From positions 1 through 50,413 of the forward strand of contig JANNRN010000044.1 of the NCBI GenBank assembly GCA_031401375.1: a DNA stretch of 50,413 bases, written 5' to 3'. Numbering within the stretch: position 1 is the stretch's first letter; the number at the start of each line of letters is the position of its first letter. Below the pieces are notes generated by a model. It made no database searches. It had not been told where the DNA came from and worked only from the letters and a program-made list of their open reading frames with translations. This DNA comes from Phyllobacteriaceae bacterium (lineage in GTDB: Bacteria > Pseudomonadota > Alphaproteobacteria > Rhizobiales > Rhizobiaceae). The translations under genes and the position numbers were made by a program. Of this stretch, positions 6,958-28,987 are shown piece by piece.

Positions 6958-7170
6958 ATGTCAGACACCGCAACCCTTTCGTCAAAATTCCAGATTTCGA
7001 TTCCAAAAGCCGTGCGCAACGCGCGGCAATGGAAGGCGGGGCAGGAGTTTGTTTTTGTGCCGAAGGGCAAGGGCATGTTGTTGATGCCTGTGCCGGAACT
7101 CGATGATTTGAAGGGTTTGGCCAAAGGCGCCAAAACTCAAGACGTGCGCGACCGGCAAGACCGGTTCTGA
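6958..7170 (+). CDS. vapB: AbrB/MazE/SpoVT-type antitoxin VapB
   Basis: 70 aa, MSDTATLSSKFQISIPKAVRNARQWKAGQEFVFVP (swapped-hairpin AbrB motif). Directly precedes and abuts the PIN gene. Confidence 0.85.
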   Translation: MSDTATLSSKFQISIPKAVRNARQWKAGQEFVFVPKGKGMLLMPVPELDDLKGLAKGAKTQDVRDRQDRF

Positions 7171-7547
7171 TGCTGGTTGTCGATACATCGGCATGGATCG
7201 AGTGGCTCATTGACGGGCCGCTGACGGCAGAAATCGCCAAACACATGCCGCCCCGCGATGAATGTATCGTGCCGACGCTTGTGCAGCATGAAATGGCGAA
7301 ATGGCTTCTGCGCGAGCGCGGCGAGGCAGAGGCGGACGAGTTCATCGCCTATACGCAAATGTGCGTTGTCGTGCCGCTCGATACGCCGATAGCGCTTGCC
7401 GCCGCAGTCCCGTGCCGCCAGCACCGGCTCGCGACCGCCGACGCCGTGATCTACGCGACGGCGCTCAGCCGCGAAGCGGGGCTGCTGACATGTGACAAGC
7501 ACTTTGAGGGGCTGGCGGGGGTGGCGCTGGTGCGGAAGGGCGGGTGA
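7170..7547 (+). CDS. vapC: PIN-domain ribonuclease toxin VapC
   Basis: 125 aa; MLVVDTSAWIEWL (first acidic PIN residue) and a later ..TADAVIYATAL..LLTCDKHF. Confidence 0.88.
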   Translation: MLVVDTSAWIEWLIDGPLTAEIAKHMPPRDECIVPTLVQHEMAKWLLRERGEAEADEFIAYTQMCVVVPLDTPIALAAAVPCRQHRLATADAVIYATALSREAGLLTCDKHFEGLAGVALVRKGG

Positions 7548-7572: not shown

Positions 7573-7601
7573 TTGATGGTTAGTTGGTTTCAAACCATCA
7601 A
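7573..7601. terminator. 9-bp perfect hairpin between convergent vapC and the HTH gene
   Basis: TTGATGGTT-agttggtttca-AACCATCAA read directly in AT-rich surroundings. A further AACCATC copy lies at about 7615. Confidence 0.45.
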
Positions 7602-7658
7602 GATGATAATTAATAACCATCGTGAAGACAGATCATAACAGACGCCGCATCGCTCAAT

Positions 7659-7994
7659 TCATCCTTGGACTTTCGCCGTCAGTTCAATATTCAACGCCTT
7701 CATCACGGCGAGCGCCGTCTTCAAGGTTGGATTGCCATTCTCGCTGAACGAGCGGTAAAGCTGTTCGCGGGAGAGGCCGGTCTGTCCGGCAATCTGCGTC
7801 ATCCCTTTGGCGCGGGCGACGACACCAAGCGCCTTGGCGATAAACGCCGCATTGCCGGTTTCGAACGCATCCGCCATGAAGAACGCGATTTCCTCTTCAT
7901 TGACCAAGGCGGCGGCGGGGTCATAGGCGGTTAGGTGTTTGGGCATGTCAGTGGCTCCGTTCCTTGGCGGCAGATCATTCCCAAGAACTTTCAT
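7659..7994 (-). CDS. HigA-type 'addiction module antidote' HTH protein, no cognate HigB/RelE gene present
   Basis: ..LTAYDPAAALVNEEEIAFFMADAFETGNAAFIAKALGVVARAKGMTQIAGQTGLSREQLYRSFSENGNPTLKTALAVMKALNIEL matches the antidote HTH family by eye. ATG 7994 overlaps the RloB stop as ATGA (alternative ATG 7946). Confidence 0.8.
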   Translation of the reverse strand: MKVLGNDLPPRNGATDMPKHLTAYDPAAALVNEEEIAFFMADAFETGNAAFIAKALGVVARAKGMTQIAGQTGLSREQLYRSFSENGNPTLKTALAVMKALNIELTAKVQG

Positions 7995-8554
7995 AGCAGG
8001 CCGATGTTTCGGAGAAATACAGCAAATGAGCGGTGGCTCGCAGAAAGCCGAATTACGTCACCAATTGTAATCTTTTGACGCAACTGCTGTCTGGTCACGG
8101 GCTTTTCATAATCTGGCCAAACCCGACGCAAGTCATGTTCAGCAAGTATGGATGTTGGCGGAGCACGACTAATATGGCCATCGAAATGGTTCAACAAAAA
8201 GGCCTCATGGCAAGGCGTTTGCCAGATTATTGTAATTCTCTGTGCTGCGGCGAGAGTTTCTAACTCCTGGCGTTGTTGCGGAAATCCATCAATTTGGTCG
8301 GAATCAATCAAAACAGCCATGTGCTGAAATTTGGTCCGGTTCCTTGCGTGCTTGGCGATTTCCTTCTGGGCTCTTATCAATCGAGCGCGCGGATCACCGG
8401 CGCCGGGACTAAGGTTCACAACTTCAATATGAAACGGCAGCCCTTTTTCGTTCAGCGCGCCATTCAAGAACTGGCCATAGGATTGCTCGGATTCACCCTC
8501 GCAGCCGAGAAAGACTGGAGTGCGAGGTTCGATAATGGCTCTTCTGCCAGTCAT
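7991..8554 (-). CDS. RloB-like (TOPRIM-like) protein, AbiLii-like
   Basis: 187 aa; N-terminal VFLGCEGESEQSYGQFL and later AVLIDSDQ, the CEGxxE and DxD pattern of RloB proteins. ATGA overlap with the upstream ATPase gene. Confidence 0.75.
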   Translation of the reverse strand: MTGRRAIIEPRTPVFLGCEGESEQSYGQFLNGALNEKGLPFHIEVVNLSPGAGDPRARLIRAQKEIAKHARNRTKFQHMAVLIDSDQIDGFPQQRQELETLAAAQRITIIWQTPCHEAFLLNHFDGHISRAPPTSILAEHDLRRVWPDYEKPVTRQQLRQKITIGDVIRLSASHRSFAVFLRNIGLL

Positions 8555-9768
8555 CCGATTTGTGGAACAGCGCCGTAAGTGCCGCCCAGATATTTCTTGT
8601 AAAGGTTGTCAACACGCAGAGCAGCCTTCACATCCATGAGAGAGTAAATCCGTGATCTCCCACGATGGTCCTTCTCACATAAGACGACCTCTTCCTTCAA
8701 CAGGTCATCCAGCAGCGAGACGGAATGACACGACATCCATATCTGAGCCTTGTTTGGATTACGGGCTGAATCGTAGAACCAGCGCATGATTTCGGGTAAG
8801 ATCAATGGATGAATCGATTGATCGAGTTCGTCTATGACGGCAATTCCACCGCGCTGAAGGGCAAGCAAGAGAAAGGGAAATATGCGGATGAACGAACGGG
8901 TGCCTTGGCTTTCCAACAGCCATGGCATTTGATGGCGAAGCCCTTCGTGCTTGAAAAGCGCGGCAGGTCCGGTCGCAGTTTGCACTATCTGCATTTGTTC
9001 AACACCAACGTCTATTCGCTGTAACTCCCGGTTCAGTGCTTCAACGATGCCAGGATTGAGGGCGAGGAACTGTATGGCGTCAGCATCGTTCGGGTCGGTT
9101 CGGTCGATCAAGATGTTCCTGATCACGGTTTCAGCTGATTGAACCAGCGCTTTCGCCGCCGGATGCTCAAAAAGCGCCAATGTTGCCACGACGCTCGCAT
9201 TTGGCCGAACTTTGTCGATAATTTTGCTAAAGCCAGTGAGCGGAAATGACTTTGAGCCCTTAATTACGTCGCTTTGCCGTTCATACACACGAACCCATCT
9301 GCCCTGACCATTCGGCTTTTGGAGCAAGGCTTCTCGCCAGACTTTGTCAATTGCTCCATCCTTTGGATGAAGCTCAAGCTCGTAACGATAAGTTCCGTAC
9401 CTTGTTTTGGAACTCGCCGCCTCTCGCACCTCCGAAGAAAGCTCCATCGGGCCGCCAATTTCGACGGCAAGCCGGATAGGCGCATTTGACGATATTTCAT
9501 CGTTGAAAGGTTCACATGGCAAATTCCCAGTATGCTGGAAACTGTCCTTAAGAAACCACGAAATGAAGGCCAAGGCCTTCAGGACCGTTGATTTTCCCGA
9601 CCCATTAGCGCCAAACACGGCCACTACTTTTGGCACGCGCTCACTTGCTCCCTCAAAAATTGGAGCGAATCTTTCCGGGTACTCTGGCACACTCTTTGAA
9701 ATCCGCAGATCAATTACCTGCAAATCTCTTATTGAATAGAAATTCTCGATCTCTAATCGGTATAGCAT
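8551..9768 (-). CDS. ABC/SMC-like AAA_21-type ATPase, AbiLi/RloA-like
   Basis: MLYRLEIENFYSIRD.., Walker A GANGSGKST, signature-like ESQGTRS, Walker B IAVIDELDQSIHP and H-loop SCHS. ATG 9768 is preferred over the TTG at 9804. Confidence 0.8.
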   Translation of the reverse strand: MLYRLEIENFYSIRDLQVIDLRISKSVPEYPERFAPIFEGASERVPKVVAVFGANGSGKSTVLKALAFISWFLKDSFQHTGNLPCEPFNDEISSNAPIRLAVEIGGPMELSSEVREAASSKTRYGTYRYELELHPKDGAIDKVWREALLQKPNGQGRWVRVYERQSDVIKGSKSFPLTGFSKIIDKVRPNASVVATLALFEHPAAKALVQSAETVIRNILIDRTDPNDADAIQFLALNPGIVEALNRELQRIDVGVEQMQIVQTATGPAALFKHEGLRHQMPWLLESQGTRSFIRIFPFLLLALQRGGIAVIDELDQSIHPLILPEIMRWFYDSARNPNKAQIWMSCHSVSLLDDLLKEEVVLCEKDHRGRSRIYSLMDVKAALRVDNLYKKYLGGTYGAVPQIG

Positions 9769-9880
9769 GCGCTTACAAATACACCTGCGAAATGCCAATT
9801 TCAACAGAAAAAACTCAAATTTGTCCTTTCACGCAATAGATGCCGTGATTTAAAGTCTTCTTACAGGTGTGCGACTGACC

Positions 9881-10468
9881 TCACCGCCACCCCTTCAAAC
9901 TCGCCCACACCCGTCTGTCCAGCGTGAAATGCTCGGCAGAAAACTGTCCGGCGGCGATTGAGTTCAGCAGGCCGATGCCGGTGAATTGAAATCCGCATTT
10001 TTCGATGACCCGGCGCGAGGCGGTGTTGGCGAGGCGGCAGCGTGTGTGCAGCCGTTCGACGGCGAGGCGGTCAAAGGCCAGGTCAACCAGCGCGTGCGCG
10101 GCTTCGGTGGCATAGCCCTTGCCCCAATGCGACTCGCCCAGCCAAAAGCCGAGCTGCAGCTTGCCGTCACGATCGCTGGACAGACCCGCGCAGCCGAGGA
10201 AGCCGCCACTCTGTTTTGAGGTCACCGCATAGGTTGAGGCCGAGCGGTCAGGCTCGCCGGCGCGGCAGATGAAAACCTCGGCGTCTCCCCGCGTATAGGG
10301 ATGCGGCATGCCGGTCATCATGGCGGCGACCTTGATGTTGTTGGCAAGCCGGGCGAGCTGTTCAGCGTCCGCCATGCGCGGTTCGCGCAGGACCAGACGA
10401 TGGGTGGCAAGGACCGGCGCCTCATGCCGGTCCTTCAGAAACTCTCGTTCACTTTCGCACGCGGCCAT
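9881..10468 (-). CDS. GNAT family N-acetyltransferase (RimJ/RimL-like)
   Basis: ..HRLVLREPRMADAEQL..MPHPY..LGFWLGESHWGKGYATEA..NTASRRVIEKCGF. ATG 10468 is preceded by GGAGGA. Confidence 0.85.
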   Translation of the reverse strand: MAACESEREFLKDRHEAPVLATHRLVLREPRMADAEQLARLANNIKVAAMMTGMPHPYTRGDAEVFICRAGEPDRSASTYAVTSKQSGGFLGCAGLSSDRDGKLQLGFWLGESHWGKGYATEAAHALVDLAFDRLAVERLHTRCRLANTASRRVIEKCGFQFTGIGLLNSIAAGQFSAEHFTLDRRVWASLKGWR

Positions 10469-10540
10469 CTTCTTTCCTCCAACCAATTGTTTTGCGTATT
10501 TCCGGACGGAAACCCGGTTCCCGCTTTTCCTGGAAATGCT

Positions 10541-27974: not shown

Positions 27975-28987
27975 TGATGGGCGGAAAAGAGCGCGTCTCG
28001 GTGATCATTCCAAATTGGAACGGCTTGAAATGGCTTCCCGTCTGTCTCGACTCGCTGCGAAACCAGACATACGCGGATTTTGTCACGTACGTCGTGGACA
28101 ATGGCTCGGTTGACGGTTCGGCTGAATTCATCACCACGCAGTATCCGGAAGTGCGTTTGATCAGGAACGCAAAAAATCTCGGCTTCGCCGGCGGGATGAA
28201 TGTGGGTATCTTGGCGTCAAAAGGTGAATATGTTGTCTCGCTGAACAATGACACAGAAGCCGATCATTTGTGGCTGGCCGAGCTTGTCGAGCACATGGAC
28301 CAGCGCCCCGGCATCGGCTTTGCAGCTTGCGCGCTCCTCGATTTCAACGACCGCGGCAGGATCGACGCGCTCGCGGACGGATATTCGATTGATGGAAGGT
28401 CCTACAAGGTCGGCAGCGGACAGATATTTCGCGACAAAGACACGCCGCCCTTCGAGATATTGAGCGCCTGCGCCGCCGGTTGCCTTTACCGCCGCTCCAT
28501 GCTCAACAAAATCGGCCTCTATGATGAGGATTTCTTTGCCTATATGGAAGATGTGGATCTCGGGTTGCGCGCGCAGCTGGCGGGTTACCGCTGCGTGTGC
28601 GTTCCGTCGGCCATTGTGTATCACATGGGAAGCGCAAGCTCGGGAGGCCCGGCGTCCGCCTTTTCAATACGGCAGACCAGCCGTAATCTCTACCGCGTCA
28701 TCTTCATCAACGTGCCCGCCCTCCTGATACCGGTATTCGTGGCGTCGGCGCTTGTTTCGCAGTCGGGACTTGTGCTGCTGTCGCTCGTTGTGCCTCGCTA
28801 CCGCTGGTTCAGAGTAAACCTGCCGGCCTACTTTCAAGGCATCGCTCAGGCATTGCGGGACGTTCCGCAATCTCTGGCCAAGCGCCGCAAGATTGCGAAG
28901 CTGAGAAAAATGGGCGCCGTCGAGTTCGCCCGCATGATTGCTTCCAGCTACCGTCTTGCTAGCCGGCATTCCAAGCGCCGCGGTTGA
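27974..28987 (+). CDS. glycosyltransferase family 2
   Basis: VSVIIPNWNGLKWLPVCLDSLRNQTYADFVTYVVDNGSVDGS, ..LNNDTE and ..EDVDLGLR. ATG 27974 overlaps the previous stop. Confidence 0.88.
   Translation: MMGGKERVSVIIPNWNGLKWLPVCLDSLRNQTYADFVTYVVDNGSVDGSAEFITTQYPEVRLIRNAKNLGFAGGMNVGILASKGEYVVSLNNDTEADHLWLAELVEHMDQRPGIGFAACALLDFNDRGRIDALADGYSIDGRSYKVGSGQIFRDKDTPPFEILSACAAGCLYRRSMLNKIGLYDEDFFAYMEDVDLGLRAQLAGYRCVCVPSAIVYHMGSASSGGPASAFSIRQTSRNLYRVIFINVPALLIPVFVASALVSQSGLVLLSLVVPRYRWFRVNLPAYFQGIAQALRDVPQSLAKRRKIAKLRKMGAVEFARMIASSYRLASRHSKRRG

Follow-up and report, generated by a model that had tools for sequence, protein, structure and literature searches.

The window, a stretch of 50,413 nt from the genome of a Phyllobacteriaceae bacterium (contig JANNRN010000044.1), carries three co-oriented open reading frames (ORFs) on its minus strand, as an earlier sequence-only reading had described. 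They encode an ABC/AAA_21 ATPase, an RloB-type protein and an HTH protein of an antitoxin family (Table 1). That reading had joined the three into one tripartite module, in which a HigA-type protein is an obligate part. Profile searches with PF13304, PF13707 and TIGR02684 uphold all three of its domain assignments; the third gene, examined among its relatives, points to a different history.

Table 1. Features of the locus, in window coordinates
Feature	Position	Strand	Basis and details
GNAT acetyltransferase, second of two, downstream of rplU-rpmA; conserved left flank	9881..10486	-	PF13302 at 9e-33
Variable segment: promoter, ATPase, RloB, toxin relic	7948..9880	-	1933 bp; homology break relative to L086
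AbiL cassette promoter (predicted)	9776..9816	-	T-tract, -35-like TTGAAA (9799-9804), 17-nt spacer, -10-like TATTTG (9776-9781), then 7 nt to the ATG
AbiLi-type ABC/AAA_21 ATPase, 405 aa	8551..9768	-	ATG 9768; PF13304, PADLOC AbiLi
AbiLii/RloB-type TOPRIM-like protein, 187 aa	7991..8554	-	PF13707, AbiLii; start overlaps ATPase stop
Relic of HI1419-type RelE/ParE toxin 3' end (last codons and TGA)	7947..7969	-	Alignment to L174
Orphan HI1420-type (HigA-like) antitoxin HTH, 95 aa	7659..7946	-	ATG 7946; TIGR02684, PF21716
vapBC pair, convergent: AbrB-type VapB (6958-7170), PIN VapC (7170-7547)	6958..7547	+	TIGR01439

The ATPase-RloB pair and its promoter

The ATPase matches PF13304 AAA_21 at 5e-24, above the cutoff, and the PADLOC profile AbiLi at 1.5e-66, and its translation contains all four motifs previously read from it (Walker A GANGSGKST, ESQGTRS, IAVIDELDQS and SCHS). 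Walker A, E286/S287/G289/T290 and D313/D316 are invariant across 27 homologues, and the gene has a dN/dS of 0.06-0.11. A search at E<=1e-10 returned 1232 homologues, the best 120 of which are mostly 403-413 aa long with a query coverage of 96-100%. The nearest named homologues come from Mesorhizobium, Brucella and Xanthobacter. Among solved structures, PtuA is the only one reached by the ATPase profile, at 9e-6. The ATPase also matches AriA at 4.6e-28, far more weakly than it matches AbiLi, and this alignment places ATPase residues 49-354 on profile positions 2-304 of 304, which is the generic AAA_21 region also found by PF13304. Membership in PARIS was rejected on the finding that the second gene has no AriB/DUF4435 match.

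The RloB assignment of the second gene likewise holds, with PF13707 at 1.1e-10 (42.4 bits; gathering score 31.5) and PADLOC AbiLii at 1.1e-7, the latter covering the N-terminal motif only (profile positions 26-72 of 170). Across 46 homologues, residues E19/E23 and D84/D86 (D84-S-D86) show little or no variation. In the AF2 model (pLDDT 92), four strands alternate with helices and the acidic motifs follow strands 1 and 3. When the model was compared with the PDB by Foldseek, no hit fell below E 0.01 and the top 50 contained no OLD/TOPRIM entry; sequence and profile searches of the PDB retrieved no solved-structure relative. Because the fold search returned generic alpha/beta folds only (E >= 0.012), the putative TOPRIM membership rests on Pfam, motifs and topology.

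RloB lies directly 3' of the ATPase gene in 20 of 23 close genomic relatives (at least 42% identity), and downstream of RloB no gene family recurs except between syntenic genomes. The ATGA at 8551-8554, reported earlier as a junction of ATPase stop and RloB start, is real, and an identical 4-nt overlap is found in L081, L082 and L087. As judged from the conserved overlap and from the AbiLi and AbiLii matches, the ATPase is translationally coupled to RloB and the two form an AbiL-type two-gene system, the architecture already proposed for them.

The promoter-like box noted upstream of the ATPase gene is also present, with no Shine-Dalgarno (SD) sequence before ATG 9768, and it is conserved in relatives. 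Specifically, TTTTTTGTTGAAA occurs at a fixed distance and without an SD in the window, L081, L082, L087, L090, L001 and L002, with constant spacing of the T-tract and TTGAAA from the ATG, and it is conserved with or without a neighboring HTH gene. More distant ATPase homologues have GGAGG-type SDs. Since no SD precedes the ATG, the AbiL mRNA is probably leaderless. A consensus sigma-70 scan did not call the promoter because its -10 element lacks the final T; the scan returned one weak site only, inside RloB (8064-8093), which does not exceed the chance expectation.

The HTH gene and the lost toxin

The HTH protein matches TIGR02684 at 4.1e-36 (123 bits, cutoff 53.7) and PF21716 at 6.3e-23, in agreement with its earlier placement in the 'addiction module antidote' family; sequence and profile searches found no solved-structure relatives. 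The second proposed coupling, of RloB to the HTH gene through an ATGA at 7991-7994, did not stand. The four letters are literally present, but they are not the HTH start. Nearly all of the best 120 of 6645 homologues (77-98% identical, nearly all 95-97 aa) start at the equivalent of M17 of the 111-aa ORF, the profile match starts at residue 21 of that ORF, and ATG 7946 is preceded by GGAG after a spacer of 44 nt from the RloB stop. Furthermore, the overlap is not kept in relatives: L087 has TAA without ATG at the equivalent position, and the overlapping ATG of L090 leads into a stop codon. These comparisons place the true start at ATG 7946, with no translational coupling to RloB. Because no terminator-like site lies between the two genes, they are probably co-transcribed.

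The claim that no killer gene exists here was borne out. By tblastn and by an HMM built from 12 canonical toxins, no RelE/ParE-type toxin ORF or significant fragment was found in the 50-kb window; the best match (28555-28665, E 0.02) is spurious and lies inside a glycosyltransferase gene. What survives is a relic of 23 nt, revealed only when the DNA was aligned with the intact syntenic locus of L174 and not by protein search. In it, CGCCAAGGAACGGAGCCACTGAC agrees with the end of the L174 toxin gene at 18 of 23 positions, and the score of the alignment was matched by 0 of 2000 shuffles of the spacer. The relic, a similar copy of which is kept in L087, now provides the GGAG ribosome-binding site of the HTH gene. 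Its survival supports the earlier view that the ATPase-RloB pair occupies the position of a killer gene.

In L174-L177, toxin, HTH and operator are intact between the same GNAT gene and DUF3833, in the order GNAT2, operator GTAGTCAAAAAACTAC, toxin, HTH, DUF3833. The L174-type toxin is 97 aa long, matches TIGR02683 at 8.4e-39 and ends 1 nt before the HTH ATG. This arrangement is the usual one: among 80 loci with relatives of the HTH, at least 63 carry an HI1419-type toxin just upstream of the HTH gene, and the toxin is frameshifted in many of the canonical loci surveyed. The operator, a palindromic GTAGT-N6-ACTAC between -35 and -10 derived from 60 promoters, is found in 65 of 80 canonical HTH loci as well. 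In the whole window, GTAGTTTATAAACTAC with up to 3 mismatches has 0 matches, as does exact TAGT-N6-ACTA, and no comparable palindrome is apparent by eye in 9769-9880; the syntenic AbiL loci also lack the operator at up to 3 mismatches. By synteny, the HTH gene is identified as what is left of a higBA-like pair that L174-L177 still carry intact at this site. A chance remnant of such a pair was the outcome that the earlier reading had set beforehand as counting against its own proposal.

The remnant has not decayed. Its ORF is intact in the window, L086, L087 and L090, its HTH-region residues are identical to those of toxin-linked copies (67-88% identical to the window HTH overall in the surveyed loci), and its dN/dS is 0.13-0.16 against L087 and L090, at a dS of 0.4-0.6 since the shared toxin loss. 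The intact frame and the low dN/dS after toxin loss argue that the HTH gene has some function, which may conceivably be linked to AbiL. A second orphan HTH copy occurs at another site (L178-L180).

Cassette exchange at a variable slot

The rplU-rpmA-GNAT-GNAT synteny is shared by L081, L086, L087, L090, L173 and L174. The closest comparison is with L086, in which both flanks are 98.3% identical (nt) and the HTH protein 96% identical (aa) to those of the window, and in which DUF5131+TcmP (PADLOC PDC-M30) takes the place of AbiL. Homology to L086 ends at the stop codon of GNAT2 (9881) and picks up again at 7947, a single nucleotide ahead of the HTH ATG. The slot between GNAT2 and HTH is accordingly filled by AbiL in the window, DUF5131+TcmP in L086, parDE+AbiL in L087 and higB in L174, and each of the two occupants known upstream of the orphan HTH is a defence cassette. 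The AbiL pair has a G+C content of about 50%, compared with about 58% for the HTH gene and 62-65% for the flanks. The vapBC pair (VapB, TIGR01439 at 2e-8; VapC, NF047959 at 4e-6, below the cutoff with 27 bits against 80) has orthologues in L086 and L087, with PIN and weak MazE_antitoxin Pfam matches, and is missing from L090 and L174; it forms a unit of its own within the same hot spot. Taken together, the syntenic loci define a variable toxin-antitoxin (TA)/defence hot spot between rplU-rpmA-GNAT-GNAT and obg. Gene calls show no integrase or transposase beside the slot. Direct repeats of target sequence, 124-168 nt long, flank the AbiL cassette in two relatives and hint at how integrase-less cassettes move.

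These observations are best explained, in our judgement with high probability, if 7948-9880 is an ordinary two-gene AbiL-type defence cassette that replaced a resident toxin gene and left the HTH as an antitoxin without a partner. On this reading, the cassette has in this lineage taken the place of the promoter and the HI1419/RelE-ParE-type toxin gene of a resident chromosomal higBA-like module, of which nothing is left but the final ~23 nt of the toxin gene and an undamaged HTH gene. The HTH is an orphan as a result of this replacement, and it is assigned by synteny to the conserved flank, not to AbiL as a component. The AbiL pair has a conserved promoter of its own, without a ribosome-binding site, and the mRNA probably starts at or adjoining the ATG. 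By analogy with PARIS and NetFlax AAA-antitoxin/TOPRIM_OLD-toxin pairs, the ATPase may hold back the nuclease-like effector RloB, which a phage cue would then release, resulting in abortive infection. The HTH gene has lost its own promoter and operator and would therefore be expressed by read-through from the AbiL promoter; it may be kept for anti-addiction, as a protein that still neutralises or represses HI1419-type toxins, whether these are encoded at other loci or come in with mobile elements.

The original tripartite proposal, in which the HigA-like HTH is co-opted as a repressor or neutraliser of ATPase/RloB at least in the clade of the window, L087 and L090, can point to the shared strand, to the 44-nt spacer with no terminator-like site, to the pair sitting exactly in the former toxin position and to an AbiL-HTH adjacency held under purifying selection of the HTH in these three lineages, whose core genes are only 61-87% identical. 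The survey of gene neighborhoods nevertheless makes it highly improbable. The HTH lies next to ATPase-RloB homologues in 0 of 80 ATPase genomic loci, and ATPase or RloB is found in 0 of 80 loci of HTH relatives; the HTH is absent beside intact AbiL pairs that are 75-82% identical (L081, L082, L173) and in 23 of 23 more distant ATPase relatives (42-73% identity), and in the near-identical genome L086 it is retained beside the unrelated cassette, without the AbiL pair. Relatives do not keep the ATGA coupling to the HTH, and the HTH region shows no change from toxin-linked copies. The AbiL promoter lacks the operator and does not differ between loci with and without an HTH gene. Consistent with this, AbiL is described as a two-component system (PMC13064643), and RloB/TOPRIM_OLD toxins form two-gene modules with AAA ATPases that neutralise them (PMC10440598); in the literature we found no description of AbiL/RloB with an HTH or antitoxin third gene, or of an orphan HigA adjoining defence genes.

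The remaining explanations differ on function. An antitoxin is purposeless once its toxin is lost, decay of such modules is common, as the many frameshifted toxins attest, and the second orphan copy could be read in the same way; the HTH might then be a functionless remnant heading to decay, its adjacency and intactness being historical accidents. The low dN/dS over the divergence since toxin loss, the ORF intact in all four genomes and the breakpoints of two independent replacements, which spare the ORF exactly from its ATG, make this very unlikely. A more elaborate version of the replacement, which we hold to be decidedly unlikely, treats the higBA locus as a landing pad in which AbiL or PDC-M30 replaces toxin and promoter precisely up to the antitoxin start codon, and the surviving HTH, transcriptionally fused to the upstream defence operon and since then kept under purifying selection, is possibly co-opted, be it as a dosage reporter for the cassette, as its repressor, or as anti-addiction immunity through which the cell tolerates losing the toxin. 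Alternatively, ATPase-RloB could be a plain TA or addiction cassette that stabilises the hot spot, with RloB as toxin, the ATPase as antitoxin and no phage role. NetFlax validated AAA-ATPase/TOPRIM_OLD as toxin-neutraliser pairs (PMC10440598), and vapBC and, in L087, parDE are TA-module neighbors. This too is unlikely, given that the best HMM matches are AbiLi/AbiLii, that lactococcal AbiL confers phage resistance (PMC13064643) and that the pair in the allelic position of L086 is listed by PADLOC as a defence candidate; TA and defence roles are, moreover, not exclusive.

Relation to known systems

The comparison of loci removes a false lead, as no evidence speaks for a new OLD/AbiL architecture of three components, and probably supplies in its place a clean, dated example of a defence cassette replacing a resident TA toxin and leaving an orphan antitoxin, for which the ancestral intact state, the relic and an alternative allele were all recovered from relatives. 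It also carries a caution for neighborhood-based defence discovery, in that adjacency, shared strand and even a stop/start overlap, when observed in a single genome, can reflect hot-spot turnover. Of remaining interest are the conserved, apparently leaderless AbiL promoter, the rpmA-GNAT/obg defence/TA hot spot and the orphan antitoxin under purifying selection.

The window pair resembles AbiL of Lactococcus lactis and RloA/RloB-type pairs in having two co-oriented overlapping genes, the first for an ABC/Rad50-like AAA_21 ATPase and the second for a small RloB-family protein with TOPRIM-like acidic motifs, and no third gene is needed across the family. It differs in being chromosomal, in a hot spot of the alphaproteobacterial rplU-obg type, whereas lactococcal AbiL is on a plasmid, in its apparently leaderless promoter and in an AbiLii HMM match confined to the N-terminal motif. 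With PARIS (AriA/AriB) and split OLD-like systems, with which a FEMS review and NetFlax group AbiL as ATPase + TOPRIM systems, it shares an ABC ATPase and a separate effector of putative TOPRIM type and, likely, the logic of an ATPase complex that keeps a nuclease in check until phage triggers it; the solved structures closest to its ATPase, however, are PtuA, at an E of only about 1e-5. The HTH is a full-length member of the HI1419/HI1420 (TIGR02683/TIGR02684) HigBA-like module, which is intact at the same chromosomal site in L174-L177, but here the toxin is gone save for ~23 nt and the GTAGT-N6-ACTAC promoter/operator is gone with it, so that the window holds an orphan and not a module. Finally, varying slot occupants between conserved flanks are a trait of defence/TA hot spots with allelic cassette exchange, although the slot boundary here is an antitoxin start codon rather than a tRNA- or integrase-associated site.

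The AbiL gene pair and the start of the HTH gene

Three ORFs lie in the same orientation on the minus strand of window positions 7659–9804. The sequence-only reading assigned them to the AAA_21, RloB and antidote HTH families, and the profile matches in the table bear this out; the four ATPase motifs it listed (GANGSGKST, ESQGTRS, IAVIDELDQS and SCHS) are all found in the translation of gene 1, whose Walker A, signature-like and Walker B residues show no variation across 27 aligned homologues. The ATPase has 1232 homologues at E ≤ 1e-10, and since the 120 best listed are mostly 403–413 aa long with a query coverage of 96–100%, we place its start at ATG 9768, not at TTG 9804. Across 46 homologues of RloB, residues E19/E23 (CEGESE) and D84/D86 (LIDSD) show little or no variation. 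In the confidently predicted RloB model (pLDDT 92), four strands and helices alternate and the acidic motifs follow strands 1 and 3, a modelled topology as expected for TOPRIM; Foldseek returned no significant match of the model to the PDB, and sequence and profile searches of the PDB returned none.

Features of the AbiL locus and its surroundings in the window
Feature	Position	Strand	Evidence
Gene 1, AbiLi-type ATPase	ATG 9768 to stop 8551	-	405 aa; PF13304 AAA_21 5e-24; PADLOC AbiLi profile 1.5e-66
Gene 2, RloB	8554-7991	-	187 aa; PF13707 RloB 1.1e-10, above gathering score; AbiLii match weaker
Gene 3, HI1420-type antitoxin HTH	starts ATG 7946	-	TIGR02684 4e-36; PF21716 6e-23
Toxin-gene 3′ relic	7947-7969	-	CGCCAAGGAACGGAGCCACTGAC; aligned to L174 toxin end
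vapBC pair	6958-7547	+	AbrB-type antitoxin and PIN toxin

The anatomy first proposed, with ATGA overlaps at both junctions, is thus largely real, but the coupling of the HTH gene is not. The ATGA at 8551–8554 is a true stop/start overlap between genes 1 and 2, and the same 4-nt overlap recurs in L081 and L082, two loci with close AbiL pairs, and in L087, a diverged relative with AbiL beside an HTH gene. At 7991–7994, however, the HTH gene does not start. Within the 111-aa ORF, the match to the HTH family profile starts only at residue 21, homologues are 95–97 aa long in nearly all of the 120 best listed, and the gene caller gives 95 aa on an identical contig. Furthermore, the equivalent position in L087 reads TAA and has no ATG, while in L090, a second diverged relative, the overlapping ATG runs into a stop after ten codons. 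We therefore assign the start to ATG 7946, which is preceded by GGAG and lies 44 nt past the RloB stop; the ATGA at 7991–7994 is a coincidence restricted to the window's lineage.

The HTH gene as an orphaned antitoxin

Scanning GTDB with one genome for each species yielded 80 ATPase loci. RloB is directly downstream of the ATPase in 20 of the 23 loci with ATPases 42–73% identical, and none of the 80 contains an HI1420-type HTH within 6 kb (phmmer; tblastn at E ≤ 10); the ORFs 3′ of RloB have no common family, syntenic genomes excepted. The close pairs in L081 (ATPase 82% identical, rpmA-GNAT-GNAT context as in the window), L082 (ATPase 80% identical, cassette inserted at the obg 5′ end) and L173 (RloB 75% identical, ATPase split) also lack the HTH. 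Among 80 metagenomic loci encoding HTHs 67–85% identical, none encodes an ATPase or RloB and at least 63 have the canonical toxin just upstream, intact toxin genes typically having a stop that overlaps the HTH start or lies within a few nucleotides of it. The HTH is thus not kept beside ATPase-RloB homologues, an outcome that the sequence-only reading had itself named as refuting its proposal, and the proposal of a tripartite system with a HigA-type HTH finds no support. Many loci of HTH relatives (L093–L172) pair a frameshifted toxin gene with an intact antitoxin gene.

Four contigs (L174–L177) carry an intact toxin and HTH (88% identical) at the same chromosomal site, in the order GNAT1, GNAT2, promoter (TTGACA...GTAGTCAAAAAACTAC...), 97-aa toxin, HTH and DUF3833. 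The toxin matches TIGR02683 (upstrm_HI1419, RelE/ParE family; 8.4e-39), and its gene stops 1 nt short of the HTH ATG. At the DNA level the window and L174 remain homologous for 23 nt 5′ of this ATG; the L174 counterpart of that stretch, CGCAAGGGAATGGCGCCACTGAC, comprises the last toxin codons and TGA. When the 44-nt spacer was shuffled 2000 times, no shuffle attained the alignment score. The intact state and the relic identify the HTH as the higA-like partner in a module that has had its toxin gene and promoter displaced. L087 carries the same relic, and because relic and junction are common to the window and L087, less clearly L090, the toxin loss predates their divergence. The relic now supplies the HTH ribosome-binding site.

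HTH dN/dS is 0.13–0.16 at dS 0.41–0.57 in comparisons with L087 and L090, and the orphan has thus stayed under purifying selection since toxin loss. In the same genome pairs, the ATPase, RloB and GNAT2 genes have a dS roughly twice as high (1.0–1.9), and VapB and VapC are unusually conserved (93% and 89% amino-acid identity with L087); gene conversion, horizontal exchange of toxin–antitoxin genes and nucleotide-level constraint are possible explanations. Orphaning also recurs without AbiL: at an unrelated site upstream of kefF/kefC (L178:376–663, L179 and L180, against toxin-bearing L181:229–516), the toxin is gone and homology restarts exactly at the start codon of an HI1420-type HTH. The HTH beside AbiL is best read as an antitoxin orphaned by the decay of a higBA-like module, and its real co-option is improbable. 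By analogy with the anti-addiction concept, the most economical role would be in trans, as an antitoxin or repressor countering HI1419-type toxins that other parts of the genome or incoming elements encode.

Cassette exchange between rpmA and obg

Contig L086 has flanks of 3.9 and 6.3 kb with 98.3% nucleotide identity to the window and an HTH 96% identical in amino acids, and lacks the AbiL pair. Homology ends exactly at the GNAT2 stop codon (9881) and restarts at 7947, 1 nt before the HTH ATG. In place of AbiL, L086:4075–5985 encodes DUF5131 (TIGR04471-like; PADLOC PDC-M30B/M41B, 1e-100) and TcmP (TIGR04474; PDC-M30A match), together matching the PADLOC candidate system PDC-M30; this defence cassette is allelic to AbiL in the slot. 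In L087 the AbiL pair is preceded by genes for a ParD-type antitoxin and a ParE_toxin-family protein (L087:1386–1969), and vapBC is missing from L090 and L174. The interval from rpmA-GNAT to obg is an accumulation site for toxin–antitoxin and defence modules. G+C stands at 62–65% in the flanks, compared with about 58% for the HTH and about 50% for the AbiL pair.

Long direct repeats of target sequence bracket the cassette in L081 (2072–2195 and 4125–4248; 124 nt of the GNAT2 3′ end, 80% identical) and in L082 (880–1047 and 3047–3213; about 168 nt covering sequence upstream of obg and its 5′ end, 93% identical), suggesting that the cassette moves through recombination of a circular or duplicated intermediate and not through a transposase. 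The L082 cassette, despite its position at obg, also seems to hold a short GNAT2-end-like stretch. In L173:4779–6004, a syntenic relative, the ATPase lies in two ORFs (202 and 186 aa) beside an intact RloB, which could reflect a decaying cassette or an assembly frameshift.

Expression and proposed mechanism

HI1419/HI1420 family promoters (n = 60) have a common 16-bp palindrome between −35 and −10 (consensus GTAGTTTATAAACTAC), the obvious predicted operator of this antitoxin family. With at most one mismatch in ten specified bases, it occurs in 65 of 80 canonical loci and in L174–L177 (L174:1606–1621); it is absent from the 50-kb window at up to 3 mismatches, and from L081–L083, L086, L087 and L173. 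Altered HTH specificity is unlikely, because orphan and toxin-linked copies have identical residues in the HTH region. The predicted operator is strongly conserved across promoters from very different metagenomes (L093–L172).

The window, L081, L082, L087, L090 and two further ATPase loci (L001 and L002) share a conserved AbiL promoter region (T-tract, TTGAAA, 17 nt, TATTTG-like box, 7 nt, ATG), HTH present or not, so the cassette carries its own expression signals. None of these seven has a Shine-Dalgarno before the ATPase, and more distant homologues have one. The promoter abutting the ATG and the missing Shine-Dalgarno, both conserved in relatives, support the earlier suggestion of a leaderless AbiL mRNA. 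No terminator-like site was found between RloB and the HTH, and read-through probably accounts for expression of the HTH. The space between the HTH gene and the convergent vapC gene contains an imperfect, AT-rich palindrome (7602–7621, GATGGTTATTAATTATCATC) and a hairpin without a T-run (7575–7599, GATGGTT-N11-AACCATC), which may act as a bidirectional terminator or as a site for protein binding.

By its genes, the locus is a member of the known AbiL kind in a defence and toxin–antitoxin hot spot; new here are the precise replacement of a toxin by a cassette and the retention of the orphan antitoxin. AbiL, a two-component system, is grouped with PARIS as an ABC ATPase plus TOPRIM/OLD nuclease system (PMC13064643). 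NetFlax experiments showed neutralisation of TOPRIM_OLD toxins by AAA ATPases encoded in two-gene modules, and the partners assigned to the same ATPase node include RloB homologues (PMC10440598). On these grounds the ATPase would be expected to hold RloB in check until a phage cue sets it free.
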